Notes: a model not told the origin generated them from the letters alone. 64,000 nucleotides of DNA from a bacterium (GCA_965205865.1 CBDBHR010000029.1:608001-672000); one strand, 5' to 3'; shown: positions 16,567 through 42,387, counted from the first letter of the stretch. Program-made: numbers and translations.

Positions 16567-16589
16567 AAAAGATAATGATCATTATCTTA

Positions 16590-19015: not shown

Positions 19016-20615
19016 GTCATCGTAAAGAACTGACTTATAGTGGTTTCCAGCCACCTTTCGTCATTCCTCCGGTACAGATCCGGACGTGCGCTGCTAACGC
19101 ATCCGGCTCCTGCTTCGAGTCAGACGCTCAAACGTTGCCGTTTGGCGCACCCTGCTTAAACCGCTCTCTGATTTTACCGGCCTCTGAGTTCCGAACACAG
19201 GAGGGCAAGCAGAATTCCTCTCAGCCAAGTCCCTTTGCTCCACAGGCTCCGTTGATTTCCTTTGCATTATTACTCTCTACAAATGATCTCATTGTTCGCC
19301 GCTTCATGCCGGGTAGAAATACGGCGCGCGCATGTTTAGGTCAACGACTTCCAATGTATCCCCCGTTTCCGGTTTCGTGGCAAAAGGGCGTCAGACCCTG
19401 CATCACGTTTCCGCAAGCCCCCCTCTCATCCCGGACGGTCGGATTTCCCGAGTCCGGTTGGCAGCAACAGCGTTTCCCCAGAAACCCTTCCCACCCAATC
19501 CGAAGCTTAAGCACTCGCCTGCATTCACCCCTGGAGTGAGTGATTTGATCTCCAGCTCGACATTCTTTGTGGTGACACTCTTGACCGACACAAGTTCGGC
19601 AGTGGTTCATGAAATGCCCGCCATTTACCGAGAGCCCCTTTGCCTTTTAGAGGTGTTACCTCCAAAAGGGAGATGTCCAAGCATCCCCTCGACCAGCGTT
19701 ACCCGGTCTTCATCGCTCATACGGACTCATGCGCCAGACCAAAATCCTCCTGCCGATTTCGGTGTTACCCTATACGGTAGGTCCTTGCAGGTTATTGCGA
19801 GTCCCTGCTGGAAGTTGGCCCTTCCCGACGTTATCTCTGTGGATCTTTCCCTGGATGCTTGGATCCATACTCCGGCTCCCTCCAAGGTGCCTGTTCCCAT
19901 TACTTCCCTTGGAACTTCGGCCTTCCCCGAGTAGCGAGCGGGTCGGCGGTTGGGCAACACACCGTCAAGCCAATTCACGACGGAAGTCTCTTTCGGAGCT
20001 GCAATCATTCACTAATGTTCAGGCCTCCAGGTTTGCTCGCCACCCTGTTGGCTCCCACTATGGACTCTCGTCCAAAGCAGACGGTGACTTTTACTTCCGG
20101 GCAGAACGCAAAGCAGTTACCTGCTAAGCGCACCGGATATGCTAGTCGCCCGAATGGGAAACTGACGACAGAGAGACTTTCACTCTCCAAAATCCACAGC
20201 CTTGTCGGCTGCTCACGCTACTACGAACTTGTCCGACTTCCTGAAGACGTAGATATCGGGGTTATTTATTAATTTTCCCGATCCGACTACCAATAGAATG
20301 TTGACAGTCGTCTTCAGGATCTCCCAGGTTCCGGTCAAGAAACTTCCACACATGCACCGGGTCTTTGACTCCGCCAGGCTCAGCCGAGACTCACGCTAAC
20401 GCCTTCGGTTGATATTGCCTTCCCCACCAAACCACAAGGTCAGCGCCTGAAACTATGATTTCGGAGCTCAATACCGAGCCTATGTTCTCCCCTGTCAACG
20501 CTTAGCGCCTATCCTTGCGAATAACCACTCATGACTCGGGGACTCGGCGGGTCGTTACTGCCTTACCGAGTAAGAGACTTTCACTCTCTATTTCTTGCCA
20601 GCTTTCCTGGCGCAC
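19016..20615 (-). mobile_element. ORF-less group II intron (692 nt once the nested intron is removed), outer intron of a twintron
   Basis: Starts GTGCG, ends TTTACGATGAC; near-identical to the RNA parts of 23162-25118 and to 41696-42387. Confidence 0.9.
19308..20215 (-). mobile_element. second, unrelated ORF-less group II intron (908 nt) nested in the outer intron
   Basis: 5' (G)TGAGC...GGAGAGTGAAAGTCTCTC; domain V-like AACCGGACTCGGGAAATCCGACCGTCCGGGAT; 3' end CTACCCGGC; removing it restores the outer sequence TAGCGATGAAG. Confidence 0.85.
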
Positions 20616-20721
20616 GGCCTGACCCCCTTTTTTATCAGTGGCCTGATTGCACACTCGTTTATTCCGACACAAAAATTCGGCGGCCATTTCGGATAAAATG
20701 TTGTTGAACTGAGCCGAGGTG

Positions 20722-20997
20722 TTACAGAAAAATGAGTGTTTGCTCACTATAGTCTCTGAGAGCGCGCAATCGTCTTTCCCCGGCAATCAGCTCATAACGT
20801 CCCTGATGCCAACGGACCACAATCGACTCGATTAACCCGTCTTGTTCAATATTGGCTGCTAATTCTTTAAGCGTTTGTTCGTCAAAATATTCACGATACT
20901 GGAAAGGAGAGGGCGCAATCTCATCAACCGGCAAGTATTCTATTCGCTCAACTCCTCCCTGCTTCCGGACTGTCATACGAATTACTTTCTTTTCCAT
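20722..20997 (-). pseudogene. ParB-like N-terminal domain fragment
   Basis: PSPFQYR..FD...LKELAANI...G, YELIAGERRLRA; no HTH or C-terminus. Confidence 0.8.
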
Positions 20998-21197
20998 ACT
21001 CCTCCTTCCCCTTTCTCGATTCTGTCATTCCGCACAATTCCGCGGATTTACCGCCCTTTCAGGACCATTTCGCTCAGAGGAGGAAGGAAGAATCGATACT
21101 TTTTAGAGCTCGACGTCTTTTTGTTTTCTGGGAATGGTTCTTAACTCAATCCTGATCTGTACCGCAACTCTTTCAATGGAAGGATTCTTTTTTGTGT

Positions 21198-21323
21198 TGC
21201 GAACGCAGTGGTAACAAGCGCCCACTCAACAGGGATGAGTGAAAGAAATGATGTTGAATTACTTATCGAAAAAACCTTGGCGATAGCGTGGGGTTGGCGT
21301 CTTTGTTCAGCGCCTTGTTCGAC
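21198..21323 (-). other. attC-like integron recombination site
   Basis: Minus strand GTCGAAC-AAGGC-GCTGAAC ... GTTACCAC-TGC-GTTCGCA, 126 bp imperfect palindrome, starting right at the toxin stop once the IS5 is removed. Confidence 0.6.
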
Positions 21324-21326
21324 TTA

Positions 21327-22252
21327 GAACTTATCCTTTAATAACTTGAAAATTGGTATTTCCTGCATTATTTTTGTCATCATGTTCAACCATAAACGCA
21401 TGGAGGCTATATGGCAAAAGTACAGTCGTGGGAAGTATCTGATTCATTTTGGGCCAGAGTGGAGCCACTGATACCAAAACCCAAACGTGACCCGAACAAG
21501 ACCTACAAGCGCAAACCCGGTGGTGGTAGAAAGCCAATGCCTGCGCGCCAAATTTTCGAGGGAATTGTATATGTTTTGCGCACCGGTTGTCAATGGAGAG
21601 CCCTTCCCAAGGAAAAATATGGGAGTCCTAGTGCCATCCATGCTCATTTCATGCGTTGGAATGAAGCGGGTTTCTTTTTGTCGCTTTGGCAAGCCGGACT
21701 TGCCGAATATGATGAGATGGAAGGGATCTCCTGGAAATGGCAAAGCATAGACGGCACGACTGTCAAAGCCCCACTGGCTCAGGAAACCGTTGGTCGAAAC
21801 CCGACTGACAGGGGAAAAAAAAGGGAGCAAGCGTCATTTGCTGGTTGACGGCCGTGGTGTCCCGCTGTCCCTCGTCGTAACCGGGGCGAACCGGCATGAT
21901 GTGACACAGTTGGAATTGGTCTTGGAGGAAATCGTCATTGCGCGGCCTGAGGGCATTGAACAACATCTGTGCGCAGACAAAGGCTACCACGGTGAGCCAG
22001 CATCACAGATCATTCGATCCAATGATTATGTGCCACATGTGAAAAAACGGGGTGAAGAGATTCAAGAAAAAAAAGCAAATCCCCAATACAGACCCAGAAG
22101 ATGGGTCGTCGAGGTGAGCCATTCATGGTTCAACAGATTTCGCAAGATAATGGTCCGATTCGAAAAATATAATCAAACTTATCTCGCACTGCTTCAATTG
22201 GCTGCAGCTATCATAACTTACAGGAAAGTTAATGTTATTTAAGGATAAGTTC
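21327..22252 (+). mobile_element. IS5-family IS (IS427-like)
   Basis: TIR GAACTTATCCTT; TTA target duplication. Confidence 0.9.
21411..22242 (+). CDS. IS5-family transposase in two ORFs joined by a probable -1 programmed frameshift
   Basis: ORFA 21411-21848 and ORFB ending at 22242 overlap at GGGGAAAAAAAAGGG (~21811-21825); SIDG, ADKGY, RWVVE motifs. Confidence 0.88.
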
Positions 22253-22543
22253 TTATATTCTGTGTTTCCAGTATTCCGGATCTCGATGCAGATGCATCAC
22301 AGCTACAATGAAAATTTCTTTGTCTTCTTCCGCATATAGGATTTCGTATGGAAACCTTCTGATCAGAGATCTTCTGATTTCACCTACTATCATTGGCCAC
22401 GCCTTGGGGTGTGTCAGAGTTCTTTCAATCGTTATTTAGACCTCTACCGCGAAGTCATATCCCAAGCCTGCTTCCTTCTCTTCATAGTATTCAATAGCCT
22501 GATCAAATTCTGATTCAGCTTCCGGATGAAACAAATATTTCAT
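22253..22543 (-). pseudogene. RelE/ParE-family toxin with an internal nonsense codon
   Basis: Manual translation MKYLFHPEAESEFDQAIEYY...GLGYDFAVEV*...RRFPYEILY...VAVMHLHRDPEYW; TAA at 22436-22438. Confidence 0.85.
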
Positions 22544-22764
22544 AAGGAAAATCTCTTCCAAATTTTTTTAAATACTTCATCTCCTGGAATAGCCGCCACC
22601 TCACCCGACCTCAACTCTTTCAGTCTCCGCTTTGCAACGGCTGCCCATTTTTGATCAATATCTGATTCAGGGGGGTTAAGGCTTTTCAGTAGCGAATCAA
22701 CCACGATCACCCTCTCTTCAACTGGAAGAGAAATCGCCTCCGCTATTAGGTCTTTGGTCTTCAT
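22540..22764 (-). CDS. addiction-module antitoxin component
   Basis: LPVEER..VDSLLKSL...IDQKWAAVAKRR..ELRSG pattern; overlaps the toxin start (ATGA). Confidence 0.85.
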   Translation of the reverse strand: MKTKDLIAEAISLPVEERVIVVDSLLKSLNPPESDIDQKWAAVAKRRLKELRSGEVAAIPGDEVFKKIWKRFSL

Positions 22765-22852
22765 CGTATCTCCAATATAATTTATGAAAATGTGAATGAG
22801 CATTGAGAAAGCAAGAATTTGTTGTTTCCAACTAGTCTCCTTAAGCATTGTA

Positions 22853-23146
22853 CCTAAATCCTGCAATTAGATGACAATCAAACATGGAAATGGTAATATA
22901 CTCAAATAGTTAACAGCAGAATCAACATTTTAAGAGATCACCATTTCCATGAAAAACAAAGGTAGCACAAGATCGGCAAGAACGACAGCAAAAAACATCC
23001 ATATCAGCCAGGGAGGCAGAGACCTGACCGCGCAAGCAGGCTTGATTCCGGTTGTCAAATTTTTCACAAAGAAGGGATTGTTTCAAAGACAGAGCAGACC
23101 GTAGATCATCAGCGTGGCGCCACGGGTCTTTATGACGCGCTGGACA
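22853..23146 (+). mobile_element. truncated IS1380 copy (left end only)
   Basis: TIR plus the start of the transposase; similarity stops at the AAAAAGGGGTCAGGCC motif. Confidence 0.88.
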
Positions 23147-23161
23147 AAAAGGGGTCAGGCC

Positions 23162-25118
23162 GTGCGCCAGGAAAGCTGGCAAGAAATAGAGAGTGAAAGT
23201 CTCTTACTCGGTAAGGCAGTAACGACCCGCCGAGTCCCCGAGTCATGAGTGGTTATTCGCAAGGATAGGCGCTAAGCGTTGACAGGGGAGAACACAGGCT
23301 CGGTATTGAGCTCCGAAATCATAGTTTCAGGCGCTGACCTTGTGGTCTGGTGGGGAAGGCAATATCAACCGAAGGCGTTAGCGTGAGTCTCGGCTGAGCC
23401 TGGCGGAGTCGAAGACCCGGTGCATGTGTGGAAGTTTCTTGACCGGAACCTGGGAGATCCTGAAGACGACTGTCAACATTCTATTGGTAGTCGGGTCGGG
23501 AAAATTAATAAATAACCCCGACATCGACGTTTTCAGGAAGTCGGACAAGTTCGTAGTAGCGATGAAGCGGCGAACAATGAGATCATTTGTAGAGAGTAAC
23601 AATGCAAAGGAAATCAACGGAGCCTGTGGAGCAAAGGGACTTGGCTGAGAGGAATTCTGCTTGCCCTCCTGTGTTCGGAACTCAGAGGCCGGTAAAATCA
23701 GAGAGCGGTTTAAGCAGGGTGCGCCAAAGGGCGAAGAGGAACCCCCATCTTCAATTCAACAATCTCTTTCATCACATCAACCCTGACTTACTGCGGAGAG
23801 CTTACTTTGATCTCAATCGCAACTCAGCGGCGGGAGTGGACGAGGAGACCTGGAATGAGTATGGCATAAATCTCCTGGAGCGGATTAACGATCTGCACGG
23901 GAGGATCCACCAAGAACGTTATCGTCCTCACCCTTCTCTGCGAGTGTGGGTTCCTAAACCGGATGGCCGTCAAAGGCCAATCGGAATAGCCGCACTTGAA
24001 GACAAGATCGTACAACAAGCCCTTGTTTGGACGTTGGAATCGATCTATGAGGAGGATTTCCTTGGGTTTAGTTACGGGTTCCGACCCGGACGAAGCCAAC
24101 ATCAAGCCTTAGACGCTTTGTATGTGGCCATTACCCAACGGAAAGTGAGCTACATCTTAGATGCGGATATTCAAGGATTTTTCGACACAATTCAGCATGA
24201 TTGGATGCTGAAATTTATCGAGCATCGAATCTCCGACAAAAGGATTCTGCGTTTAGCAGAGAAAACGTTGCGCGCCGGAGTCATCGAAGAGGGGAAGTGG
24301 TCTGAAACGGTGGTCGGAACACCACAAGGTTCGGTAGTGTCTCCAATCTATTCAAATATCTACCTGCACTATGTTTTAGATCTATGGGTTAATCAATGGA
24401 GAAGGCGGGAAGCTCGGGGGGAAGTTTACATCATTCGCTATGCGGATGATTTCGTCGTGGGTTTTCAATATTCTGAAGATGGCCAGAAATTTAATCGCCA
24501 ACTAAGAGAACGCCTCTCTCAATTTGGACTGACTTTACATGAAGAGAAAACACGCCTCATCGAGTTCGGGCGATTTGCCGCCGATAACCGGGAAAAACAA
24601 GGTCTGGGAAAACCGGAAAGTTTCGACTTTTCAGGATTCACTCATGTCTGTGACACTCGGATAAAGGATGGAAAATTCAAGCTCACCCGTCTCACCATTT
24701 CCAAAAGGTTGCGAAAGAAGCTCAAAGAGATCAAACTTGAAGCGAAACGCAAACGTCATGAAAATGCGCATGAACAAGGAAAATGGCTCAGGTCTGTTTT
24801 AAACGGTCTGTACAACTACTATGGAGTCCCCGGCAACCGGAGTTCCTTGAATGCTTTTCGCACGGAAATCCATCGGACGTGGTTCAAATCACTAAGACGG
24901 AGGAGTCACAAAGCAAAGAGGATGAACTGGGAACGCTTCAAAGTACTGGTCAAACTACACATTCCTTCTGTAAGGACAACCCACCCGTATCCGAATCAAC
25001 GTTTGAGCGTCTGACTCGAAGCAGGAGCCGGATGCGTTAGCAGCGCACGTCCGGATTTGTACCGGAGGAATGACGAAAGGTGGCTGGAAACCACTATAAG
25101 TCAGTTCTTTACGGTGAC
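23162..25118 (+). mobile_element. group II intron with RT/maturase ORF
   Basis: GTGCG start, domain V GAGCCGGATGCGTTAGCAGCGCACGTCCGGAT, ...GTGAC end; boundaries confirmed by comparing three copies. Confidence 0.95.
23602..25014 (+). CDS. ltrA: group II intron reverse transcriptase/maturase, no HNH endonuclease domain
   Basis: RPIGIAALEDKIVQ, SYGFRPGR, GTPQG, RYADD, domain X; ends HPYPNQRLSV; start uncertain. Confidence 0.93.
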   Translation: MQRKSTEPVEQRDLAERNSACPPVFGTQRPVKSESGLSRVRQRAKRNPHLQFNNLFHHINPDLLRRAYFDLNRNSAAGVDEETWNEYGINLLERINDLHGRIHQERYRPHPSLRVWVPKPDGRQRPIGIAALEDKIVQQALVWTLESIYEEDFLGFSYGFRPGRSQHQALDALYVAITQRKVSYILDADIQGFFDTIQHDWMLKFIEHRISDKRILRLAEKTLRAGVIEEGKWSETVVGTPQGSVVSPIYSNIYLHYVLDLWVNQWRRREARGEVYIIRYADDFVVGFQYSEDGQKFNRQLRERLSQFGLTLHEEKTRLIEFGRFAADNREKQGLGKPESFDFSGFTHVCDTRIKDGKFKLTRLTISKRLRKKLKEIKLEAKRKRHENAHEQGKWLRSVLNGLYNYYGVPGNRSSLNAFRTEIHRTWFKSLRRRSHKAKRMNWERFKVLVKLHIPSVRTTHPYPNQRLSV

Positions 25119-25130
25119 CCTTTGGTGCGC

Positions 25131-25262
25131 TTACCAATTGAAAGGGTTGATCAATCAGGCTAGGAGGCCTCGTTTGCGTTTCCTCTTTGTGGCACCATAA
25201 CTTCCATGAGCACCTCGCAGCTGCGGATCGAGCAAGTCTCTCACCACATCACCGAACAGGTT
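25131..25262 (-). pseudogene. 3'-terminal fragment of a DppC-like permease
   Basis: Translates NLFGDVVRDLLDPQLRGAHGSYGATKRKRKRGLLA*LINPFNW. Confidence 0.75.
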
Positions 25263-25475
25263 GAGAGTAGACGACAATCGTCAGGAAAAGCCCCGGCCAG
25301 AGCGCCAGCCAAAATTTCACGTAAGTTATTTTCTGATTGACATTGAACCAACATACCGGTAATTAGGAAGGATCTTTCCCGAATGCCATTCACGGGATCA
25401 AGGGTATCGGGAAGATTGACACACACGATTATTTCACGCAGATACTGCGTAACTTTAAACTAAAGGAGTCCAACA

Positions 25476-26594: not shown

Positions 26595-26760
26595 TACACT
26601 GTCAGCTTGAAATTTACGGGTATGGTAGGGCGGGACTGCTGCTCCAGCGTACCGGTTCCCGCCAAAAAACGCCGGAGTTGGTACACCGCGCGGTAGTCCG
26701 ACCGGTACGCCGAGCGGCTACCATAAACAATGATGGGAATGCGCTAATTTACCTACCTTC

Positions 26761-27000
26761 TCAGAACCCCATCTCTTTCTTCAGTTCCTGATCGACCCAA
26801 ATTAAGGCGAGCCAGGGTTTGTTCACAGTTATGCCGAGATCAGTTTCCCCGTTGTGGCCCTTGATCCACGGCTGGGTGGCACCGAACGGGGGTGCCAGTG
26901 GCCCCCTGATCACCCACAGCATCTCGGCGACGCGCAGGTCGGCCTTCCGCACCCACTCCTTCTGTTCCTCCAGCGTGGTAGCGGCCAGCGCGTTCTCGAA
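26761..27000 (-). pseudogene. C-terminal fragment of a third family-5 substrate-binding protein
   Basis: QPWIKGHNGE...IWVDQELKKEMGF matches the C-termini of the two other SBPs; breaks at AAAAGGGACAGGCC. Confidence 0.8.
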
Positions 27001-27002
27001 GG

Positions 27003-27087
27003 AAAAGGGACAGGCCCCTTTATTCTCTTTTTCTCTAATCAAATGAAGGAATCCCTTGCAAATAATTAGTAACTGTCCCCGGATTTT
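27003..27087. repeat. inward-facing GGG(G)ACAG motif pair (REPIN-like)
   Basis: AAAAGGGACAGGCCCC ... GTAACTGTCCCCGGATTTT. Confidence 0.65.
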
Positions 27088-27111
27088 GGTAGCGAAAGGG
27101 ACAAAAACGAC

Positions 27112-28359: not shown

Positions 28360-28496
28360 GATTGTCCTCCTCGATGAATTTTAAGCACGGATTACTTATT
28401 TGCCTTTCAATCCCGGTGCGTTCTGTTTCGTCCGGCTTGATATATGACTTGACTATCTATAAACAAATTTCCGTTCACCCGGCTCCTTGGGTGCGC

Positions 28497-29465: not shown

Positions 29466-29478
29466 GCCTTCACTCCCT

Positions 29479-30743: not shown

Positions 30744-31095
30744 TTCATTCTCCTTGCAATGACACGAGAAGGCGGCTTCTAACGGCCCTTCTCTTCCTTC
30801 ACGTCTTGATAAACCCAGGTAAACCGCAATGGCGACGCAGGGCTATCAAGAAGGTCAATATTACTTTCTCCAAAGTAACCACCCACCCACGGCTGCCAGA
30901 AGGTATACTCGAAACCGGTAGGACCCCATACATTGAGGTGCTGGCCAATGAGGTACATATCGGCCTCTATAGCCCCATCCTTTAACTCTTCAATGGTAGT
31001 CGCCGCATTCACCTTCTCATCAATGAGGGCGTCATAGACTGGGTCTTTGAAACCGTGCCAGTTCCACGGGCCGTCTGTTACATAAAGTAATACTA

Positions 31096-32791
31096 CCTAA
31101 ATCCTGCAATTAGATGACAATCAAACATGGAAATGGTAATATACTCAAATAGTTAACACCAGAATCAACATTTTAAGAGATCACCATTACCATGAAAAAC
31201 AAAGGTAGCGCAAGATCGGCAAGAACGACAGCAAAAAACATCCATATCAGCCAGGGAGGCAGAGACCTGACCGCGCAAGCAGGCTTGATTCCGGTTGTCA
31301 AATTTTTTCACAAAGAAGGGATTGTTTCAAAGACAGAGCAGACCGTAGATCATCGGCGTGGCGCCACGGGTCTTTATGACGCGGTGGACATGGTCATTTT
31401 GTCGGTGGTCGGCATTGTTGGTGGCGCCCGTTCGATTCGTTCGATTGTGACAGTTTGGAACGACCGTGTTTTGAGTCGTGTGGCCGGTTGGCTGAGGATT
31501 CCGGATGAAACCACATTCGGCCGGATACTGCGTACTTTCACACAGAAAAACATCAATGAGATGGAGAGCTTGAACCATCGGATTCGAGCCGGTATCTGGC
31601 GTAAGGCGCTTCGAAGTGGGACAAGCATCGTTGGGGTGTTACACTGTCTTGTGATTGACGTGGACTCCACTGTGAAAACGGCCTACGGCAAGCAGCAAGG
31701 AGTGTCTGTCGGATATAATCCCCACAAACGCGGTGCAGCTTCGTATCATCCTCTGCTGGCATTTTGCGCAGAGACAAAGGAGATTCTTCAGGGTTGGCTT
31801 CGTGATGGGAGTGCCTATACCAGCAATGGAGTCGTTGAATTCATGCGGCAACTTCTCGCTCACCTTCCAAATCGGACTCGCACTCTGTTTCGTGGAGACA
31901 GTGGTTTTTTTGTGGGGGATTTGCTGGATTTCCTCGAAGAACGAGGCCATGGCTATCTGATCAAGGTCAAACTCAAGGGGCTTGTCTCGTTGTTGGAAAC
32001 CCAAAAATGGCAAAAAGTGAAGGGGCAGCCCGCTTGGGAAGGGTGTGAGTTTTCCCACCAATGTGAAACTTGGAGGAGGTCAAGAAAATTCATGGCCGTA
32101 CGCAGGGAGAAAGAGGAGGAACTCAAAGGGATGGCCACCCTCTTTGAGATGAAGGAGTACGATTATTTTTGTTATGTTCTCACTGACGCGCTCACTCCCT
32201 GGCAGGCTCACAAAGAGTATGGCCAAAGGGCGGTCGCTGAGACATGGATTGAGGAAGCAAAAAATCAAACTGCGCTGGCTCAGATTAAAACCGACGATTT
32301 TTGGGCCAACAGTGCCTTGTTCCAATGCGCGATACTCGCTTACAACACGCTGCGCTGGATGGCCCTTTGTAGTGGTAACGCAATACTGCGCCGTTGGGAA
32401 CCGGCCACCATGCGCACCTATCTTGTCCGAATGGCAGGAAAATGGACGAGTGGCGCTCGTCAACAAAAACTGAGAGTTCCGGAAAGAACACTTTACAATG
32501 CTCAATGGGATGCATGGGTCGCTGTTGGAGAGACCTGGATCCTTTGTTTCACTCCAGTGGATACATTTTGCTGAGATGTAGATTCCCAAATCCAGGGAGA
32601 AGTACGTCTTGAATCTTGTGCCCGCGAAAGCGGGTATCAGATCATCACAAAATATGACGATCTAATGGAGGGCGGAAAAACCTTTATGAGCAAGGACTGA
32701 TGGAAATTCAACTCTCAACTCCTTTTTTTTAAAAAAACCTCTCAAAGAGTGAGGGGAAACTCAATCAAAATATTCAATTGCAGGATTTAGG
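31096..32791 (+). mobile_element. IS1380-family IS, copy B
   Basis: Same TIRs as copy A; target duplication TACTA. Confidence 0.95.
31192..32574 (+). CDS. IS1380-family transposase
   Basis: 460 aa, near-identical to 9494-10876. Confidence 0.93.
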   Translation: MKNKGSARSARTTAKNIHISQGGRDLTAQAGLIPVVKFFHKEGIVSKTEQTVDHRRGATGLYDAVDMVILSVVGIVGGARSIRSIVTVWNDRVLSRVAGWLRIPDETTFGRILRTFTQKNINEMESLNHRIRAGIWRKALRSGTSIVGVLHCLVIDVDSTVKTAYGKQQGVSVGYNPHKRGAASYHPLLAFCAETKEILQGWLRDGSAYTSNGVVEFMRQLLAHLPNRTRTLFRGDSGFFVGDLLDFLEERGHGYLIKVKLKGLVSLLETQKWQKVKGQPAWEGCEFSHQCETWRRSRKFMAVRREKEEELKGMATLFEMKEYDYFCYVLTDALTPWQAHKEYGQRAVAETWIEEAKNQTALAQIKTDDFWANSALFQCAILAYNTLRWMALCSGNAILRRWEPATMRTYLVRMAGKWTSGARQQKLRVPERTLYNAQWDAWVAVGETWILCFTPVDTFC

Positions 32792-33386
32792 TACTATAGG
32801 AACTACGGGATAGTTATTGCCTTTTAGGCCAACTACCATACCGTCATAGTTTTCCCCCCTGCAGCTAAGCATCGACATAAAAGTGGCAAACTCCACCTGA
32901 TTAATCTCCAGCTCGATGCCAATCTCAGCAAGGTAGGAGGCAACTATTTGGGCCCACCCTACGTCCAGACCGCCGACCCATGAGTCGTTGATATGGTAGG
33001 TGGTCTTAAATCTAATGCCATCGGCACCAGGGGTATACCCAGCCTCATCAAGGAGTGCCTTTGCCTTTTCCGGGTTGTAGGTATGCTCCGCCTGAAGCTC
33101 TTCAGGCCACTCATCAAACGGTTTAAACCACCCGATAACGGCTGGCCCGCCAAAGCCCCTAGGTGTGGGGTCGGTTTTACCCTTGTAGTAGGTCTGGGAA
33201 ACGGTGGGGATGTCAATTGCCATCTGCATCGCCTTGCGCACCCTGTTGTCATCAAAGGGTGGCTTTGTGACGTTCAGGGCCATATTTTGCTTGTTTTGGC
33301 CTAACGGTCCTGCCCTGAATTGGAGTTCAGGGCTGTTCTCTATTAGACCCTCTGCCACTTTGGGTTCAACACCAATTAATATATCA

Positions 33387-35082
33387 CCTAAATCCTGCAA
33401 TTAGATGACAATCAAACATGGAAATGGTAATATACTCAAATAGTTAACAGCAGAATCAACATTTTAAGAGATCACCATTACCATGAAAAACAAAGGTAGC
33501 GCAAGATCGGCAAGAACGACAGCAAAAAACATCCATATCAGCCAGGGAGGCAGAGACCTGACCGCGCAAGCAGGCTTGATTCCGGTTGTCAAATTTTTTC
33601 ACAAAGAAGGGATTGTTTCAAAGACAGAGCAGACCGTAGATCATCGGCGTGGCGCCACGGGTCTTTATGACGCGGTGGACATGGTCATTTTGTCGGTGGT
33701 CGGCATTGTTGGTGGCGCCCGTTCGATTCGTTCGATTGTGACAGTTTGGAACGACCGTGTTTTGAGTCGTGTGGCCGGTTGGCTGAGGATTCCGGATGAA
33801 ACCACATTCGGCCGGATACTGCGTACTTTCACACAGAAAAACATCAATGAGATGGAGAGCTTGAACCATCGGATTCGAGCCGGTATCTGGCGTAAGGCGC
33901 TTCGAAGTGGGACAAGCATCGTTGGGGTGTTACACTGTCTTGTGATTGACGTGGACTCCACTGTGAAAACGGCCTACGGCAAGCAGCAAGGAGTGTCTGT
34001 CGGATATAATCCCCACAAACGCGGTGCAGCTTCGTATCATCCTCTGCTGGCATTTTGCGCAGAGACAAAGGAGATTCTTCAGGGTTGGCTTCGTGATGGG
34101 AGTGCCTATACCAGCAATGGAGTCGTTGAATTCATGCGGCAACTTCTCGCTCACCTTCCAAATCGGACTCGCACTCTGTTTCGTGGAGACAGTGGTTTTT
34201 TTGTGGGGGATTTGCTGGATTTCCTCGAAGAACGAGGCCATGGCTATCTGATCAAGGTCAAACTCAAGGGGCTTGTCTCGTTGTTGGAAACCCAAAAATG
34301 GCAAAAAGTGAAGGGGCAGCCCGCTTGGGAAGGGTGTGAGTTTTCCCACCAATGTGAAACTTGGAGGAGGTCAAGAAAATTCATGGCCGTACGCAGGGAG
34401 AAAGAGGAGGAACTCAAAGGGATGGCCACCCTCTTTGAGATGAAGGAGTACGATTATTTTTGTTATGTTCTCACTGACGCGCTCACTCCCTGGCAGGCTC
34501 ACAAAGAGTATGGCCAAAGGGCGGTCGCTGAGACATGGATTGAGGAAGCAAAAAATCAAACTGCGCTGGCTCAGATTAAAACCGACGATTTTTGGGCCAA
34601 CAGTGCCTTGTTCCAATGCGCGATACTCGCTTACAACACGCTGCGCTGGATGGCCCTTTGTAGTGGTAACGCAATACTGCGCCGTTGGGAACCGGCCACC
34701 ATGCGCACCTATCTTGTCCGAATGGCAGGAAAATGGACGAGTGGCGCTCGTCAACAAAAACTGAGAGTTCCGGAAAGAACACTTTACAATGCTCAATGGG
34801 ATGCATGGGTCGCTGTTGGAGAGACCTGGATCCTTTGTTTCACTCCAGTGGATACATTTTGCTGAGATGTAGATTCCCAAATCCAGGGAGAAGTACGTCT
34901 TGAATCTTGTGCCCGCGAAAGTGGGTATCAGATCATCACAAAATATGACGATCTAATGGAGGGCGGAAAAACCTTTATGAGCAAGGACTGATGGAAATTC
35001 AACTCTCAAATCCTTTTTTTTAAAAAAACCTCTCAAAGAGTGGGGGGAAACTCAATCAAAATATTCAATTGCAGGATTTAGG
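33387..35082 (+). mobile_element. IS1380-family IS, copy C
   Basis: Same TIRs; target duplication TATCA. Confidence 0.95.
33483..34865 (+). CDS. IS1380-family transposase
   Basis: 460 aa, same translation as copy B. Confidence 0.93.
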   Translation: MKNKGSARSARTTAKNIHISQGGRDLTAQAGLIPVVKFFHKEGIVSKTEQTVDHRRGATGLYDAVDMVILSVVGIVGGARSIRSIVTVWNDRVLSRVAGWLRIPDETTFGRILRTFTQKNINEMESLNHRIRAGIWRKALRSGTSIVGVLHCLVIDVDSTVKTAYGKQQGVSVGYNPHKRGAASYHPLLAFCAETKEILQGWLRDGSAYTSNGVVEFMRQLLAHLPNRTRTLFRGDSGFFVGDLLDFLEERGHGYLIKVKLKGLVSLLETQKWQKVKGQPAWEGCEFSHQCETWRRSRKFMAVRREKEEELKGMATLFEMKEYDYFCYVLTDALTPWQAHKEYGQRAVAETWIEEAKNQTALAQIKTDDFWANSALFQCAILAYNTLRWMALCSGNAILRRWEPATMRTYLVRMAGKWTSGARQQKLRVPERTLYNAQWDAWVAVGETWILCFTPVDTFC

Positions 35083-36185
35083 TATCAAGTTTGCCCGAGC
35101 TTAACGCGGCTAGTCTTGTCCCCATGTCGGGCATGATCAATACTTCGGCTTCGTCAACATAGGGTAACCTGTTTTCCGGGTAACGGGGGTCATAGGCCCA
35201 GTAGTCGGGGTTCTTGGCGAAGGACCACGAGGAACCGTCGACATGGTCGATTATTATGAAAGGCCCGGTGCCGATGGCGTACCGCCAGTCGTTCATACTT
35301 CCGTACATGTCAATCGGTTCGCGCGGTACTATTAGCGCTACCTCCTCCTCGTATAAAATTGTCGTCAGCGCTATGGAGCTTGGCCTCGATAGCTTAAACT
35401 CAACAGTATATTCATCCGTAGCCGTTACGGATTCTATCGGTATATTGTCTATAGTAGCCGCCCTGTCAGATTGCCCAACCTCCTCAAACTCGCCAAGACC
35501 GGTTAGCCGCTCGAAGGTGTATTCGACATCTTTAGCCGTCAGCTCCCGACCGTTCACCGGAGGTTTATTCTGCCAGTGCACCCCTTGACGGATGTGAATG
35601 ATGATGGTGGTTGAGTCGGGCGTTTCCCAGCCTGTAGCAAGATGGGTCACCATAACCTCGAAGGGCATATACTTGCTCGTAAAGTCAAACATATCCCGGT
35701 CTACTTTGAAGTCACCGATAACCATCTTTTCTAAGAAGAAACCCGATAAGGCTCTGGCTTGGATGGCCTCGTAGTAGTCGGTAGTCTCAGTATCATCTAC
35801 CATAAAGGTGGTGATTTTGCCACCATACTGTGGCAGCCCTACCATCTTGCCGGTTGCCGGGTCTTTGACCATCTCGGCCGCAATGGCCGAACTACTCCAA
35901 AGGACGATCAGACCCAGGATGAGGGCTGGCAGGGTTGCACTGAAGGTTGATTTGCTTTTTTGATGATCCATCTTTTTCCTTTCGATTGCATGTTCAAAAT
36001 TAAGGATTGCTTTAAAACCTGCTTTCGGTCCCGAAAGCACGTTGTCGAGGATTTCTCTACCCATTGGGTCTCCTTCATTTTGGAGTGATTAAAAACCGAT
36101 CCATTGGCTCCAGGATGGGGCCATGAACCCTGAGCTTTCAATGCTCTTGAGGAATTTCCATTGGCTGAAATGAACTGAGGTGAAA

Positions 36186-36400
36186 TTTAAGGATCTCTTC
36201 CCCTCGGACTAGGCGTCGCTTCCGCGTACGGCCCCGTCGAGATAACATAAGGGGGGACAACCCAATGAATTTGGGGCTTAGGACTTAGAACTTGGAGCTT
36301 GGAGTTGGGTGCCGGGTGCTTGGATTTTGGAACTGTGACTGGGAACTAGGAACTAAGTGCAGGGTGCAGGAATTGTACTCTCATATTAACCTCGTGTCAA
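36186..36400 (-). promoter_or_regulatory. sigma70 promoter + heptamer tract + structured leader, copy 1 (upstream of the SBP operon)
   Basis: TTGACA-17bp-TACAAT, then period-7 YYCYAAG-like units, then core ATCTCGAC...GTCCGAGGGGAAGAGATCCTT. Confidence 0.7.
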
Positions 36401-36838
36401 GTTATTTTTTATGCTCGAAACAGACATGTCATCTTAATTTCAGACTTTCTGACGGTACATCCGAAAAACGAAAGATCGCATGATTGCCTTTCTGTCAGCC
36501 CAAGGCGATTTCGTTGAAAATTATCAAAAAAGAAATAGAAAAACAAGCCGAAATTCTTAAAAACCGTCAGCCCAAGGCGATTTCTTGAAAACGATCACAA
36601 AAGAACGATGATGGCAATATCCTGGTAGATTTCATTATCCCCTTCAGTATCCTCTCAATATAACAATGTTTAGAGGAGGTCAATCGATTTTTTTGCTCAT
36701 CTTAACTCCTCAGTGGCGAGTGCTTGTCTCATCCAGGACTTGATCCTCGCTCCTATTTGTATCAGTCTTTGAAAATAGCGAAGGCATCCTTCCAGCATAG
36801 TATAACAATATTTAGAGGAGGTCAATAGATTTTTTTGC

Positions 36839-37081
36839 TCATCTTAACTCCTCAGGGGCGAGTGCTTGTCTCATCCTGGACTTGATCCTCGCTGCTCTCT
36901 GTGTCAGTCCTTGAAAATACTGGGCAATCCTGCCCTTCCCGGAACGAAAAGCATGGGATTCAGAGCGCATCATTTCAAGGAGTGATGCGCACTCGGCCAA
37001 TTGAAAATCAGGGATATGGGAAAGTTGTCTCTGGTCCTCATTCAATTGATAAAATTCAGTCCACTTAACAAGAAGATCCAC
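36839..37081 (-). CDS. hypothetical protein whose 3' end is repeated nearby
   Basis: 80-aa ORF; its 3' end (ARIKSRMRQALAPEELR) recurs at ~36698-36780 and inverted at ~41026-41106. Confidence 0.4.
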   Translation of the reverse strand: MDLLVKWTEFYQLNEDQRQLSHIPDFQLAECASLLEMMRSESHAFRSGKGRIAQYFQGLTQRAARIKSRMRQALAPEELR

Positions 37082-37137
37082 CTGCGGAGCAAAGCGGAGT
37101 CAGGTGAAACGACTGGTTGGAAAATCCTGTCCCAAAC

Positions 37138-37755
37138 TCATCGATACTTTTTCTTTTTCTCGACAACGACTCCGATTATTCGGTATTGTGTATTCTTGCT
37201 CAGCTCAATGTCCTCATATTTAGCGTTCAATGGATGCAGTACCCTTACTTTTCCATATTTCTTTAATTGTTTGAAAGTTGCTTCCCACTCTTCATTACAA
37301 ACCACAATATAATCATTGTGCCCGGCCTTGAGATAAGGATTAATCACAATGATGTCTTCTTGATAAAATTCTGGTTCCATGCTATCTCCCCGAACCCGCA
37401 AAGCAAAAGTTCCTTTGGAGTCTGTCTCCATAAAATCCCCATCCTCCTGTTGGGAATTCGCGCATTCTCTCCAATGACCCGCCTGTGTCCATGCCAGGAT
37501 CGGGATCTGTTTGATCCTGCCTTTTTGTTCTGGTTTTCTCTCTACAGAAAGATAGCCTGTTTCTCTGAGAAATTCTTCAATTTCGATGCGATAAGTCTCC
37601 AAGAACCCCATCACCATCTCAAAGGAAGGCACACTGCTGCCGTTTTCTATGTCTCGGATGTGGGTATGAGAGACGCCTGAGAGCTGGGACGCTTGGCGCA
37701 GCGATAATCCTGCTTGATTCCTTTTCTCCTTTAAAAAGACTCCAATCGTTTTCAT
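37138..37755 (-). CDS. XRE-family HTH repressor with S24 (LexA/CI-like) peptidase domain
   Basis: LSLRQASQLSGVSHTHIRDIENG HTH; QAG cleavage site; GDSMEP (Ser) and TFK (Lys). Confidence 0.92.
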   Translation of the reverse strand: MKTIGVFLKEKRNQAGLSLRQASQLSGVSHTHIRDIENGSSVPSFEMVMGFLETYRIEIEEFLRETGYLSVERKPEQKGRIKQIPILAWTQAGHWRECANSQQEDGDFMETDSKGTFALRVRGDSMEPEFYQEDIIVINPYLKAGHNDYIVVCNEEWEATFKQLKKYGKVRVLHPLNAKYEDIELSKNTQYRIIGVVVEKKKKYR

Positions 37756-37758
37756 AGT

Positions 37759-37821
37759 GTAAATCATATCTTACTTTTTTATTGGGACCAATTTTATTTT
37801 AAATGTAAGATATATATTACA
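37759..37821. promoter_or_regulatory. two GTAA-N8-TTAC palindromes, candidate operators
   Basis: GTAAATCATATCTTAC at 37759 and TGTAAGATATATATTACA at 37804, in the divergent intergenic region. Confidence 0.55.
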
Positions 37822-37919
37822 ATCATATATTTCTCAAGTTAAAGGACAAATTTCATGACAATGACACAATTCGAATATTTGAAATGAAAGATATAATGAA
37901 CGAATAGGAGAATCATTCA

Positions 37920-38390
37920 TTGATCTATAAGCGACGTCATCCCGAAAAAACAGAATACTATCGCATTATTTAAGCCAATTTTGAAGCATTTGAAAGGAAC
38001 TATCCGGAACTCTTTGAGGAGAATTATGGCTACCTGAGGAAAGACATCATGCCCGCCATTTACGCCTATCTGGACTGTGGAATTCCAGAGAACGGTGTGG
38101 CAAGGGTGAGGTGTGAATGTGGAGAAGACTTCTTTGTGGCTTTTTCCTGCAAAAAAAGAATGATTTGTCCCAGTTGCTCGACAAAAAGGTCCATCCTCTT
38201 TGGCGAGAAAGTCCGAGAAATCGTCAAGCCGTTTCCTCATCTTCATGTGACCTTTACTATCCCCAAAATCCTCAGAGGCTATTTCCGCAGAAACAGAAAA
38301 TTATTGAAATTGCTGACACAAAGTGCGAATTTCGCCATCAAACAATATTTTCACGAAACGTTAAGCATCAAGGACGGATATACTGGCGGA
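37920..38390 (+). pseudogene. IS91-like transposase zinc-binding domain, with nonsense codon, truncated by IS256
   Basis: YKRRHPEKT..., YLDCG...RVRCECG...FSCKKRMICPSC, HVTFTIPK. Confidence 0.82.
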
Positions 38391-39773
38391 GAGTTATTGT
38401 CAAAAGTGGTGTTTGAGTTAAAAATCAAGCGGCAATCCGGATTTCAGGAATCACCTCGATTCCATCAGAGAATTGTACACCTTCAATCACCTTTGCCAGG
38501 TAATCAAAGCCACGTAACTTTCTCCAATTCTTTTCTGCGCATTGTCCCAGCTTAAACATCATGTGCAGCATCCCTTCACGATTGAGACAGCCCTTTGATC
38601 TTTTGGTTCTGTGCCTTATGGTACCAAAGGTGGATTCAATCGGGTTGCTGGTTCGTATACTCTGCCAATGTTTAGCAGGGAAATCATAAAAGGCCAGTAA
38701 CTCTTCACGATCTTGCTGTAGAGAAAGGGTGGCCTTTGGATATTTATCCTGATAGGTTTCAATGAAGAGTTCAAAGGCTTTCTCCGCATTGATTTTAGTC
38801 TCTGCCTGCCAGATTTCATGTATCGCCTCTTTAGCTTTAGGCTGTGAGCTTTTGGGCAGAGAGTTAAGGATATTAGCTGTTTTGTGTACCCAGCAGCGCT
38901 GATGACGTGTCTGAGGATATACTTCATCCATGGCAGCCCAAAACCCCATGGCTCCATCACCAATAGCTAACTGAGGAACATTCATGCCACGGCTTTTGAG
39001 TTTCAGCAGAACCTCTCTCCAACTCTGAGTGGACTCTCGTACACCATCTTCGATGGCTAAAAAACGTTTCTGACCTCTTTCGTTGACTCCAATGATAACC
39101 AATGCGCAAAGTTTATCCTTCTCGGATCGAAGACCTGAATAGATGCCATCTACCCAGACATAGGCCCAGCGGTCTTCATCCAGTGGTGCCTCCCGCCAAC
39201 GTTGATATTCATTTGCCCATTCACTCTTGAGGCGTGAGACAGTGCTGGCTGAGAGGCCCTGTGCATCATGACCGACCAGGACTTTTAATGCTTCCCCCAT
39301 CTCTCCGGTAGAAACACCTTTCAGGTACAGCCATGGTAATGCTGCTTCCAGGGTTCTGGTTTTTCTGACATAGGGCGGAACCAAGGCAGAACGGAAAGTC
39401 AGTGCCTTCCCATCTTTTGAACGTACCTTGGGGATGCGGACACTGACTGGGCCTATACCTGTCAGGATTTCTCGTTTTGGCAGGTAGCCGTTGCGTACCA
39501 ACGCAAGCCTTCCATCATCGGCTATGCGTTGATGCTGAGACAAATACTCGCTCAATTCTGTTTCTACTGCCTGACGTATTAATTGCTGTGCCCCGTCTCG
39601 TAACAACTCGTTCAGAACATCTGAAACACTCTCTTTATTATCGAACTCTAAAATGCTGTTCTTTCCCATAGTGGCATATCCTTTTTATTTGGTTGATTGA
39701 TATTCGAAAATTCTAGTCAACCAGATATGCCGCCTTTTTTCAATTCCTCAAACACCAGATTCGATTATAGCTC
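38391..39773 (-). mobile_element. IS256-family IS
   Basis: Imperfect TIRs GAGTTATTGTCAAAAGTGGTGTTT / GAGCTATAATCGAATCTGGTGTTT; no target duplication. Confidence 0.88.
38425..39669 (-). CDS. IS256-family (mutator-type) transposase
   Basis: RNGY, WVDG, IGDGAMG, QRCWVHK, RTSNPIES. Confidence 0.95.
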   Translation of the reverse strand: MGKNSILEFDNKESVSDVLNELLRDGAQQLIRQAVETELSEYLSQHQRIADDGRLALVRNGYLPKREILTGIGPVSVRIPKVRSKDGKALTFRSALVPPYVRKTRTLEAALPWLYLKGVSTGEMGEALKVLVGHDAQGLSASTVSRLKSEWANEYQRWREAPLDEDRWAYVWVDGIYSGLRSEKDKLCALVIIGVNERGQKRFLAIEDGVRESTQSWREVLLKLKSRGMNVPQLAIGDGAMGFWAAMDEVYPQTRHQRCWVHKTANILNSLPKSSQPKAKEAIHEIWQAETKINAEKAFELFIETYQDKYPKATLSLQQDREELLAFYDFPAKHWQSIRTSNPIESTFGTIRHRTKRSKGCLNREGMLHMMFKLGQCAEKNWRKLRGFDYLAKVIEGVQFSDGIEVIPEIRIAA

Positions 39774-40018
39774 ATTCCTTGTTTTCCATATCCCAATTTT
39801 CTTTCAAAAGGATGTTCAAACTTTGGAGAAATGACTCTCATAAAAGTATCTGTTGCTTCAAGAATCCGTTTCCTTTGGGCGACAAGATGATTATCTGTTA
39901 CTGTTTCTTGATAGACTGCTTCAGGGATATATACTATCTCAAAAAGCTGGAAAAGAATGTCTAGCTGATCAACACTACTCAGTGCTATAAGAGGACTTGA
40001 ATTGGAAATGACAATCAT
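39774..40018 (-). pseudogene. PIN-like (DUF3368-type) toxin truncated by IS256
   Basis: VISNSSPLIAL...LFEIVYIPEAVYQE; cut at LGYG by the IS end. Confidence 0.8.
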
Positions 40019-40290
40019 TTTTTGATTTGTTCCATCAAGTGTTGGAAGGAGGAATAACTTTCACGCAATTCATCAGGCGCCGCATTTATAAATGAAAGTC
40101 CTTTTTTCCCCAACAACTCGAAAAACTCAGTATATGTAATGCCTAGCAGTTGTGCTGCTTCCCCAAGGCTTAGATTTCCATATTGACGTTGTTCCATAAT
40201 AAAATCTTCATACATAGTTCGGCGAACATCCTCAATACTCTCAAATTGACTGACTATTTCATCGGGAATTTCTACTGTAATCTTTGCCAT
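40015..40290 (-). CDS. UPF0175-family antitoxin-like protein
   Basis: LSLGEAAQLLGITYTEFFELL HTH; overlaps the PIN gene start. Confidence 0.82.
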   Translation of the reverse strand: MAKITVEIPDEIVSQFESIEDVRRTMYEDFIMEQRQYGNLSLGEAAQLLGITYTEFFELLGKKGLSFINAAPDELRESYSSFQHLMEQIKK

Positions 40291-40359
40291 TGGCTCTTCC
40301 TTTTTGATTACCTGAATTGGTTGCTATTTTTCATCTTAGAGTACAGTCTGCTCTTTTAT

Positions 40360-40677
40360 TCAATCAAGAGTTTTTCACTTCTCGAATTTCTCGCTTTCGC
40401 AATTCTTGGTATGGTTGCTCGCAAGCTAGATCAAAGGGAATGGTCGGAATAGTGCTGAAGAATAGCACGGTTCCATCAGCTTCTGGTAGGCATGAACTCT
40501 GCGTTCTCCCTCTGCGCGTCGTGCCAGCACCGCTAAACATCCTCGCAGCATCTCTTCAACGGTAATAATGCTTACTGCCAGCGAATCTGGGGAAACTGCT
40601 GCAAAACGAATCTTTAGTGTGGGATGCCCTCTCTCCAGTAGGCTGAGATGATCGGTATCAAAGATCCGTTCAACCAT
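40360..40677 (-). pseudogene. VapC/PIN toxin, frameshifted; antitoxin remnant upstream (~40674-40800)
   Basis: FDTDHLSLLERG, VSIITVEE.LRG; frame lost near 40470; 3' end approximate. Confidence 0.75.
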
Positions 40678-41405
40678 TATGTCCCATTCTCTGTTCGTTC
40701 GCGGTTGATTTCCTCGATGAAATCGTCGAAATCCGGGTCATCCGCCGATCGTCCGAAGGCCTTGAGCCATGGATGAGAGGATTCCAACCCTGGAATCTCT
40801 ATATCGCTTCTCCAGTGCGGTATTTTCGATCTGATGATCTCAATTATGTCTCAATCGTGCTATGATTGGCAAGTTTTCATTCTTCTCTGTTTCTTCGGCG
40901 GCTATCTTTTATTGGACGCAAAAATTCGCAGATATCCACTGCATCGTTATAGATGCTTGCCTCTCTTTCAAAAAAAGCGCTCTCTTCACTCAAGAGAATT
41001 TCTAAATGATTGATGCACTTGCTCCAATTTCAAGGATTGACACAGAGAAGAGCGAGGATCAAGTCCAGGATGACACAAGCACTCGCCCACTGAGGAGTTA
41101 AGATGAGCAAAAAAATCTATTGACATCCTCTAATATTTTATATAGACAGGATACTGAATGGGATCATGAAATTCACCAGGTTTTTGCCATCATAATCTCC
41201 CATTGGTCGAAATGACACGTTTTTTCTTTAAATCACGGGAAATCTCAAAGAGCCATGAAATCTACCAGGTTTTTGCCATCAAAGTTAATGAGTTGCCGTA
41301 TTTAAAGAAAAGCTTGAGAAACATTTCCAGAACGAGTAAACATATTTCCAATTTCCAAGGACAAAAGAGCAATTCAGAGAGTCACCATATTAAAAATAAT
41401 AAAGA

Positions 41406-41670
41406 TTGACAAAAGGGTAAAATGAGAGTAAGTTCAAGCACTCAGTTCTAAGTTCCCAGTCACAATTTCCAAGTTTCAAATCCCAAGTTCATTGGGTTCT
41501 ACACCGTGGTGTCATCTCGATGGGGCCGTCGGTACGCCCGATACGCGCACGGTGGTCCGCATACGGCGCATCGGCGTACCGGAAGCGGCGCCTGGTCTTC
41601 AGGGAGGGATCCTTAAGATTCCTCGTTCCAAATTCCAAGCCCCAAGTCCTACGTTCCAAGTTTCAGGAAC
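41406..41670 (+). promoter_or_regulatory. sigma70 promoter + heptamer tract + structured leader, copy 2
   Basis: TTGACA-17bp-TAAGTT; heptamers; core with an extended GC-rich hairpin; more heptamers after the core. Confidence 0.7.
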
Positions 41671-41695
41671 AGAAGGGCAAAAAAGGGGTCAGGCT

Positions 41696-42387
41696 GTGCG
41701 CCAGGAAAGCTGGCAAGAAATAGAGAGTGAAAGTCTCTTACTCGGTAAGGCAGTAACGACCCGCTGAGTCCCCGAGTCATGAGTGGTTATTCGCAAGGAT
41801 AGGCGCTAAGCGTTGACAGGGGAGAACATAGGCTCGGTATTGAGCTCCGAAATCATAGTTTCAGGCGCTGACCTTGTGGTCTGGTGGAAAAGGCAATATC
41901 AACCGAAGGCCTTAGCGTGAGTCTCGGCTGAGCCTGGCGGAGTCAAAGACCCGGTGCATGTGTGGAAGTTTCTTGATCGGAACCTGGGAGATCCTGAAGA
42001 CGACTGTCAACATTCTATTGGTAGTCGGATCGGGAAAATTAATAAATAACCCCGATATCTACGTCTTCAGGAAGTCGGACAAGTTCGTAGTAGCGATGAA
42101 GCGGCGAACAATGAGATAATTTGCAGAGAGTAACAATGCAAAGGAAATCAACGGAGCCTGTGGAGCAAAGGGACTTGGCTGAGAGGAATTCTGCTTGCCC
42201 TCCTGTGTTCGGAACTCAGAGGCCGGTAAAATCAGAGAGCGGTTTAAGCAGGGTGCGCCAAACGGCAACGTTTGAGCGTCTGACTCGAAGCAGGAGCCGG
42301 ATGCGTTAGCAGCGCACGTCCGGATCTGTACTGGAGGAATGACGAAAGGTGGCTGGAAACCACTATAAGTCAGTTCTTTACGGTGAC
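41696..42387 (+). mobile_element. ORF-less group II intron (692 nt), deletion derivative of 23162-25118
   Basis: GTGCG...GTGAC ends; ORF replaced by the junction GCGCCAAACGGCAACGTTTGAG. Confidence 0.92.

Follow-up and report, generated by a model that had tools for sequence, protein, structure and literature searches.

A 64,000-nucleotide (nt) stretch of bacterial DNA (GCA_965205865.1 CBDBHR010000029.1:608001-672000; hereafter the window) was analyzed and found to carry a group II intron in three copies, one autonomous and two lacking an open reading frame (ORF-less). We consider it probable, although by no means certain, that these copies represent an endonuclease-less intron family matched by the Rfam model RF02005 (group-II-D1D4-6), whose homing is guided by exon-binding site 1 (EBS1), and whose preferred site is a RAYT-type repeat, that is, the repeat belonging to a different mobile system.

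Intron copies, insertion sites and the interrupted repeat

The Rfam scan of the window returned three RF02005 matches (scores in Table 1; cut-off 49 bits), and no further intron fragments were found in it besides these three copies. The ends of copy 2 were set by pairwise alignment with copies 1 and 3, and all three copies begin and end alike (GTGCG...GAC), displaying the 5' GUGYG and 3' AY ends of mobile bacterial group II introns. Over the 692 nt that they share, the copies differ pairwise at 11-16 positions (97.7-98.4% identity), with copy 1 being 98.4% and copy 3 97.7% identical to copy 2. Moreover, copies 1 and 3 have an identical 1265-nt deletion, corresponding to positions 571-1835 of copy 2 in the pairwise alignment, and the reverse transcriptase (RT) gene is carried solely by copy 2, a point absent from the earlier note made on this DNA (hereafter the original prediction). 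Since copies 1 and 3 represent one deletion at different sites, the ORF-less form appears to have moved, this being the sole, and indirect, indication of mobility.

The RT of copy 2 scores 339.8 bits with TIGR04416 (cut-off 300), aligning from position 3 to position 352 of the 353-position profile, and a Pfam comparison at E<=1 yields no family other than RVT_1. Its alignments to group II RTs from the PDB stop by residue 451, and the T.el4h RT (562 aa) aligns only to its residue 422. In agreement with the original prediction of an RT without an endonuclease domain, neither Pfam (E<=1) nor the PDB alignments detected an endonuclease (D/En) domain after the thumb (X) domain, the absence of which marks the endonuclease-less lineage (classes C, D, E, F and some CL). 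The RT family is very large: of the 8000 candidates scored, at least 7958 proteins reach E<=1e-100; close relatives include a cluster of 40 member sequences at 99% identity and another of 41 at 90%, and one relative, 82% identical, is named after Deltaproteobacteria bacterium TL4.

Regarding the ribozyme, the domain I-IV secondary structure is present, as indicated by the RF02005 scores and by covariation in the D1d helices of 12 aligned sequences. Not counting the ORF, the ribozyme is approximately 690 nt long. According to PMC3753933, ribozymes of classes IIE and IIF span 450-700 nt, carry alpha-prime in the terminal loop of DId3 and have a 5-nt domain V loop. In copy 2, the domain V loop reads UAGCA if closed by a U.G pair, but has 3 nt in the minimum free energy fold. 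Another hairpin has a loop of 10 nt, and a scan for its partner (alpha/alpha-prime) reached at most four of 10 sequences at any column. The available parts of PMC12350094 and 10.1101/2024.12.10.627823 do not give a mapping of RF02005 to an RT class.

Each copy directly follows the motif AAAAA(G)GGGGTCAGGCY (Table 1). Upstream, only these 16-18 nt are common to the three copies, and downstream nothing is, so that segmental duplication is excluded for the window copies, which are independent insertions. The original prediction had placed the three copies directly after a common motif in unrelated contexts, and had named long common flanks as the mark of segmental duplication; coordinates and flank comparison bear out the former, and the flanks proved unrelated beyond the motif. 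With at most one mismatch, the decamer GGGGTCAGGC occurs 11 times in the window, compared with 3.17 on average and at most 9 in 100 shuffles, and three of its four exact copies abut an intron. No ORF longer than 106 aa (stop to stop) runs across the reconstructed empty sites, which therefore look intergenic.

Excising copy 3 in silico restores a 23-bp repeat, as the original prediction had anticipated in stating that its removal yields a sequence resembling empty sites. Three unoccupied instances of the 23-mer (AAAAGGGGTCAGGCCTTTGATTA), allowing at most three mismatches, were indeed found in the window (15966-15988 on the plus strand, 16042-16064 and 43414-43436 on the minus strand), against 0.00 expected. 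The first two face inward and form a REPIN-like doublet, which folds as a single long DNA hairpin (-20.8 kcal/mol). The sequence CGGAT is present on both sides of the doublet (15961-15965 and 16065-16069), and could represent a 5-bp target duplication, which is not an expected product of a Y1 transposase, or a chance occurrence. The third unoccupied instance is the right inverted repeat of a RAYT-like unit, located 110 nt after the ORF at 42405-43304; the left inverted repeat is interrupted by copy 3, approximately 65 nt upstream of the RAYT-like ATG, with copy 3 oriented as the gene.

That ORF matches PF01797 with 42.1 bits (cut-off 23), and HVH and RYVHLNP are visible in its translation, which we take to be the HVH and tyrosine motifs of Y1 (HUH) transposases. 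With the curated RAYT model NF047646 it reaches only 59 bits (cut-off 80), a score lowered because the gene is broken. Set against intact relatives (P0001-P0003 and P0005), the ORF is interrupted by an in-frame stop after eight codons and by a frameshift approximately 20 codons further on. In addition, it is without some 46 aa of the DnaA_C-like domain present in P0002 (79% identical); this internal gap is also seen in P0001 (96% identical), the start of which is intact. Of 1068 candidates, 441 are related to it at E<=1e-10; in the majority of the 120 relatives listed, PF01797 is combined with the DnaA_C-like PF08299, and 11 of these 120 were named RayT by JGI. By its lesions, the gene is decayed and dead. 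It lies between inverted copies of a repeat that also forms a doublet, and "RAYT-associated inverted repeat" is a fair description of the repeat within the window. The RAYT association claimed by the original prediction holds in respect of the inverted repeats around the gene and in the doublet, but the gene itself is decayed.

Exon pairing through EBS1

To locate the intron sequence that pairs with the exon, every domain I column was scanned in 5-mers, with G.U pairs allowed, against exon positions -1 to -6 of the same sequence. The set comprised 10 sequences: copy 2, one copy (L002) from a metagenome-assembled genome (MAG) and eight plasmid-borne relatives, with copies 1 and 3 omitted as near-duplicates. 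A single column, located in the 9-nt loop that caps the first hairpin of D1d, is fully complementary to its own exon in eight of the 10 sequences; the remaining two (L002 and the plasmid relative L005) fall one mismatch short, and non-overlapping columns reach at most two. In the window, GGUCUG pairs with CAGGCC over 6 bp, including one G.U pair. For a single sequence, about five complementary 6-mers would be expected by chance in a domain I of ~255 nt and ~7 exon registers with G.U allowed (0.375^6 x 255 x 7). On the recurrence of this column among the sequences, we assign EBS1 to GGUCUG in the D1d hairpin loop (Table 1). This corrected position for the RF02005 family should be useful for annotating and retargeting these compact introns.

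The intron's complementarity to its motif, which the original prediction had claimed, was thus found, but through another EBS1 than the one proposed and with no EBS2. Both proposed elements lie at the coordinates given but are strands of helices rather than loops. For the proposed EBS1, AGCCTG (23397-23402), GCCUGG (23398-23403) pairs with UCAGGC (23327-23332), where six of six pairs changed on both sides and 100% of the alignment cells can pair. For the proposed EBS2, GACCTT (23336-23341), CCUU (23338-23341) is the 5' strand of a stem closed by 23351-23354, where four of four pairs show changes on both strands and 85.4% of cells pair. The two candidates were accordingly ruled out. The covariation alignment comprised 12 sequences, and none of 500 shuffles reached the observed score; the structure evaluated was that of the Rfam model and was not derived from these sequences alone.

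Relatives of the intron and competing explanations of its homing site

A search of genome contigs with the first 28 nt of the intron gave four matches, all in one other genome, MAG OZ242383.1 (loci L001-L003). The MAG copies are approximately 90% identical to the window intron. Three of the four are complete, ORF-less and 698 nt long, with a deletion junction that differs by 6 nt from that of the window copies; the fourth (L001) is a truncated 5' fragment of ~85 nt following GGGGGGCAGGCT. The MAG copies in L003 (3360-5907) and L002 (3696-3723) lie within a repeated unit with identical flanks. As long flanks are shared (at least 70 nt of identical 5' flank in the three complete copies, two of which are in tandem, 2520 nt apart), these three were counted as one site (...AAAGGGGGTCTGGCT/TGATGG, the slash marking the insertion point here and below). 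An unoccupied GGGGTCTGGCT/TGAATG is present in L003 and is the same local variant as the occupied MAG site, so the variant motif exists in the MAG without the intron. The EBS1 loop of the MAG copies reads AGCCUG and their exon ends in GGCT, with A pairing to U at position -1, where the window has G with C. Overall, repeat specialization is partly supported, with one clear case among the three copies in the window and one likely case in the MAG.

Eight plasmid-borne relatives (L004-L011), chosen from the tblastn matches listed (at least 5000 records), encode RTs 52-55% identical to that of copy 2, and all eight score 177-201 bits with RF02005. In L007 and L008 (both at ~763), the intron directly follows CTGT-N8-ACAG next to imuA, a motif which we take to be a LexA box; in L010 (~773) it follows CTGT-N8-CCAG, and in L006 (~755) it lies in the loop of a 14-bp inverted repeat. 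In L005 and L009, it is found approximately 100 nt upstream of annotated IS66-family genes (tnpA/tnpB). The exon of L009 ends in CGCTTA, followed by C, which on the other strand resembles the GTAAGCG tip of IS66 ends; if correct, this would add a further example of the family inserting at the end of a different element.

According to the explanation that we favor, the RT made by the full-length copy would bind excised intron RNA, whether full-length or ORF-less, so that the ORF-less copies would be mobilized in trans. The resulting complex would find its DNA target by pairing EBS1 GGUCUG with CAGGCY, reverse-splice directly after CAGGCY and then copy itself into DNA, with nascent strands at replication forks presumably serving as primers in place of endonuclease cleavage. 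The preferred landing site would be AAAA-GGGGTCAGGCC/TTTGATTA, which constitutes the inverted ends of the RAYT-like unit and of the REPIN-like doublet, and exon positions -7 to -16 may be recognized as well. The repeat, rather than any site with its 5' half, would be the natural homing site.

Several observations weigh against this explanation. The claim of the original prediction that the intron is specialized on a dispersed repeat of another mobile system holds for copy 3, which sits in a full repeat, but copies 1 and 2 match only its 5' half (16-18 nt). The 3' half is present at copy 3 only (one of three copies) and the 3' exons of copies 1 and 2 are without TTTGATTA; copy 2 has CC followed by TTTGGTG on its 3' side, and copy 1 only a T-rich stretch. 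CAGGCC is intact in all three unoccupied repeats, yet these carry no intron, and the window holds no more than four full repeats and one decayed RAYT-like gene. Moreover, a scan of exon positions -6 to -18 did not reveal an EBS2, with at most four of the 10 sequences per column; the four at the large D1d bulge are L010, L005, L007 and L008, and not the window intron. The conserved upstream A-run and G-run thus have no consistent partner among the columns scanned. Copies 1 and 2 also score below the cut-off of 40 bits with RF00029 (D5-D6), at 28.8 bits for copy 2 (25023-25118) and 25.6 bits for the other. Finally, EBS1 pairing in the MAG retains a U.U mismatch at position -5, and a Pfam comparison of 14 ORFs from L001 and L003, with the ORFs of L002 outside the scan, found no Y1 transposase.

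Alternatively, the intron would recognize a motif of ~16 nt in the 5' exon, made of the intron-binding site IBS1 and of contacts at -7 to -16, wherever it occurs, the RAYT-flanking repeat being incidental. We regard this as a real possibility, albeit not a probable one. The limited match of copies 1 and 2 to the repeat would follow directly from it. Moreover, the A5-6 G4-5 T stretch upstream of IBS1 is perfect at the three occupied sites and deviates, within positions -8 to -13, at all three unoccupied ones (GGTGT, AGGGT and AAAATGGGGT), which hints that these positions matter to the intron and suggests that it reads them; intron-encoded proteins (IEPs) of the RmInt1 type do read distal 5' exon positions (PMC4615759). 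Nevertheless, chance alone is not expected to repeat a 16-nt match within a few Mb of genome (4^16 ~4e9), and copies 1 and 2 are therefore most likely located in diverged members of the repeat family. Consistent with this, the reconstructed empty site of copy 2, AAAGGGG-TCAGG-CCCCTTT, is a perfect 7-bp palindrome (-10.8 kcal/mol), namely a version of the repeat that contains two additional C and continues with TTTGGTG. The occupied and unoccupied MAG sites, in turn, share a genome-specific variant, which also argues for the repeat and against a motif read anywhere.

In another alternative, a small hairpin between an A-run and a T-run, terminator-like or REP-like, would be recognized for its structure, as by class C introns, and not for its sequence. 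The sites do fold as A-run/GG...CC/T-run hairpins, and among the plasmid relatives the intron lies at palindromes (after CTGT-N8-ACAG in L007 and L008, and within the 14-bp inverted repeat of L006). However, the other five reconstructed or unoccupied sites in the window form only weak DNA hairpins (-1.4 to -4.0 kcal/mol), insertion takes place inside the 3' arm rather than past the hairpin, and the occupied MAG site, judged by eye, has no hairpin. Furthermore, the loop sequence GGGGTCAGG is conserved, which recognition of structure alone would not need, and the full 6-bp EBS1 pairing differs from that of IIC introns, which are without part of EBS1 (PMC3753933). We consider this alternative improbable. 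Spread by segmental duplication or recombination together with the flanks does occur in the MAG, as the shared flanks and the tandem arrangement there indicate, but is contradicted in the window by copies that have just the 16-18-nt motif in common, and as an account of the window copies it is very improbable.

Should the repeat indeed be the homing site, a known hiding strategy of group II introns, exemplified by insertion sequences, terminators and attC sites, would extend to REP/RAYT-type repeats (REP, repetitive extragenic palindromic), which are abundant, located outside genes and handled as single-stranded DNA. It would also be a naturally occurring case of a non-autonomous group II intron that has persisted for a long time, a type considered rare among bacteria in reviews. 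More speculatively, and with considerable doubt on our part, an intron lineage dominated by ORF-less copies might act as a parasite of the REP/RAYT-type system, with EBS1 tracking the repeat variant of each genome (GGUCUG/CAGGCC here, AGCCUG/GGCT in the MAG). By landing in the repeat that the Y1 transposase must recognize, such an intron could prevent or modulate that system's spread, with both elements exploiting single-stranded, hairpin-prone DNA at replication forks.

Besides the features discussed above, copy 1 contains a nested insert (Table 1) that has a D5-like hairpin with a 2-nt bulge and no ORF; its ends are uncertain, with ~118 nt following the hairpin, and no other copies of it were found in the window or in the fetched loci. 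The insert probably represents another group II intron without an ORF, which would make copy 1 a twintron. The window is unusually dense in insertion sequences (5435-22242, 31192-39669 and 62134-63711) of the IS1595, IS4/IS5, Mutator/IS256 and YhgA-like types, together with three identical 460-aa DDE_Tnp_1_4 genes (9494-10876, 31192-32574 and 33483-34865), and its solute-binding-protein and ABC permease genes are fragmented. Upstream of copy 3, small ORFs on the minus strand (39740-40677) look like PIN/VapC toxin-antitoxin pairs, as judged from their translations alone.

Table 1. Coordinates of the intron copies, their target motifs and associated features, numbered from the first nucleotide of the window
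Feature	Position	Strand	Description
Intron copy 1	19016-20615	-	ORF-less; 692-nt intron plus 908-nt nested insert; RF02005 167.9 bits; deletion junction 19138/19137
Intron copy 2	23162-25118	+	Full-length, autonomous; 1957 nt; RF02005 167.8 bits over 23196-23418
Intron copy 3	41696-42387	+	ORF-less; 692 nt; RF02005 151.8 bits, with extra broken pairs; deletion junction 42265/42266
5' exon motif of copy 1	20616-20633	-	AAAAAAGGGGGTCAGGCC
5' exon motif of copy 2	23146-23161	+	AAAAAGGGGTCAGGCC; IBS1 CAGGCC at 23156-23161
5' exon of copy 3 (5' half of left inverted repeat)	41679-41695	+	AAAAAAGGGGTCAGGCT; 3' half TTTGATTAAAT resumes at 42388
EBS1 hairpin loop, copy 2	23342-23350	+	GUGGUCUGG, 9 nt; EBS1 GGUCUG at 23344-23349
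EBS1 hairpin loop, copy 3	41876-41884	+	
EBS1 hairpin loop, copy 1	20427-20435	-	Reads GGUUUG
RT/maturase of copy 2	23602-25014	+	470 aa; YADD codons 24439-24450; TIGR04416 match
Domain V of copy 2	25025-25056	+	Folds as D5-type hairpin with 2-nt bulge; long domain VI next, with bulged A 8 nt from 3' end
Nested insert of copy 1	19308-20215	-	908 nt, in domain IV; RF02003 33.2 bits (cut-off 49), E 1.8e-5
REPIN-like doublet	15966-16064		Two inward-facing unoccupied repeats (15966-15988 +, 16042-16064 -)
RAYT-like Y1 (HUH) transposase gene	42405-43304	+	Decayed; ATG 42461; PF01797
Right inverted repeat of RAYT-like unit	43414-43436	-	Unoccupied; AAATGGGGTCAGGCCTTTTATTA

Comparison with known systems

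Among the papers listed that link group II introns with REP or RAYT, none was found to describe an intron homing into RAYT-flanking repeats. Concerning related strategies, introns of classes C, D, E and F that have no endonuclease take their primers from replication forks, and those of class C insert at terminators and attC sites (PMC4424553). Class C introns resemble the intron described here in having no endonuclease and in inserting at small, repeated, hairpin-prone motifs outside genes. In contrast, the present intron has a full 6-bp EBS1-IBS1 pairing, a target conserved in sequence, an insertion point in the 3' arm of a weak hairpin and an RF02005-type D1-D4. The present intron accordingly does not show the class C pattern of insertion just downstream of a terminator or attC stem-loop with a shortened EBS1.

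REP-type repeats are also known as landing sites of other elements. In the table of PMC1525189, the insertion sequences ISPpu9, ISPpu10, ISPa11 and ISPsy8 show 100% association with REP, and two of nine copies of a group II intron of Pseudomonas putida KT2440 are REP-associated, which is a single, weak earlier report for this type of intron. Unlike in those cases, the link described here involves base pairing with the repeat, and the occupied repeat directly flanks a RAYT-like gene.

Group II introns without an ORF are uncommon in bacteria and occur beside related copies that encode the IEP, which is supplied in trans (PMC4424553). Copies 1 and 3 fit this description, being ORF-less and near an ORF-bearing copy to which they are approximately 98% identical. 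What differs is that one deletion derivative is found here at new sites and persists in a second genome at ~90% identity, and the ORF-less form therefore appears to behave as a lasting non-autonomous lineage.

The closest parallels are offered by RmInt1 and RmInt2. RmInt1 homes into ISRm2011-2, and its ectopic sites resemble its IBS sequences (PMC5894124). It thus shares with the present intron a homing site in another mobile element and occasional look-alike sites, and ectopic insertion of this kind may serve as a model for copies 1 and 2; it differs in having a defined EBS2-IBS2 pairing and known IEP contacts, whereas no EBS2 was found here. RmInt2, which is endonuclease-less, uses the two inverted repeats of ISRm17 as homing sites, and in assays an ORF-less donor is mobile when the IEP is provided separately (PMC4615759). 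Both RmInt2 and the present intron lack the endonuclease, exist in several copies and target the inverted repeat of another mobile element, with two opposite sites per element. In contrast to RmInt2, the RNA family here is RF02005, and the target comprises, instead of a DDE insertion sequence, a RAYT-like unit of the Y1 (HUH) type and a REPIN-like doublet; a single repeat is occupied, ORF-less copies outnumber full-length ones in the window, and the system is known from sequence alone. Altogether, homing into the inverted repeats of another element is a principle already known, and what is new is the type of target and the persistence of the non-autonomous form.

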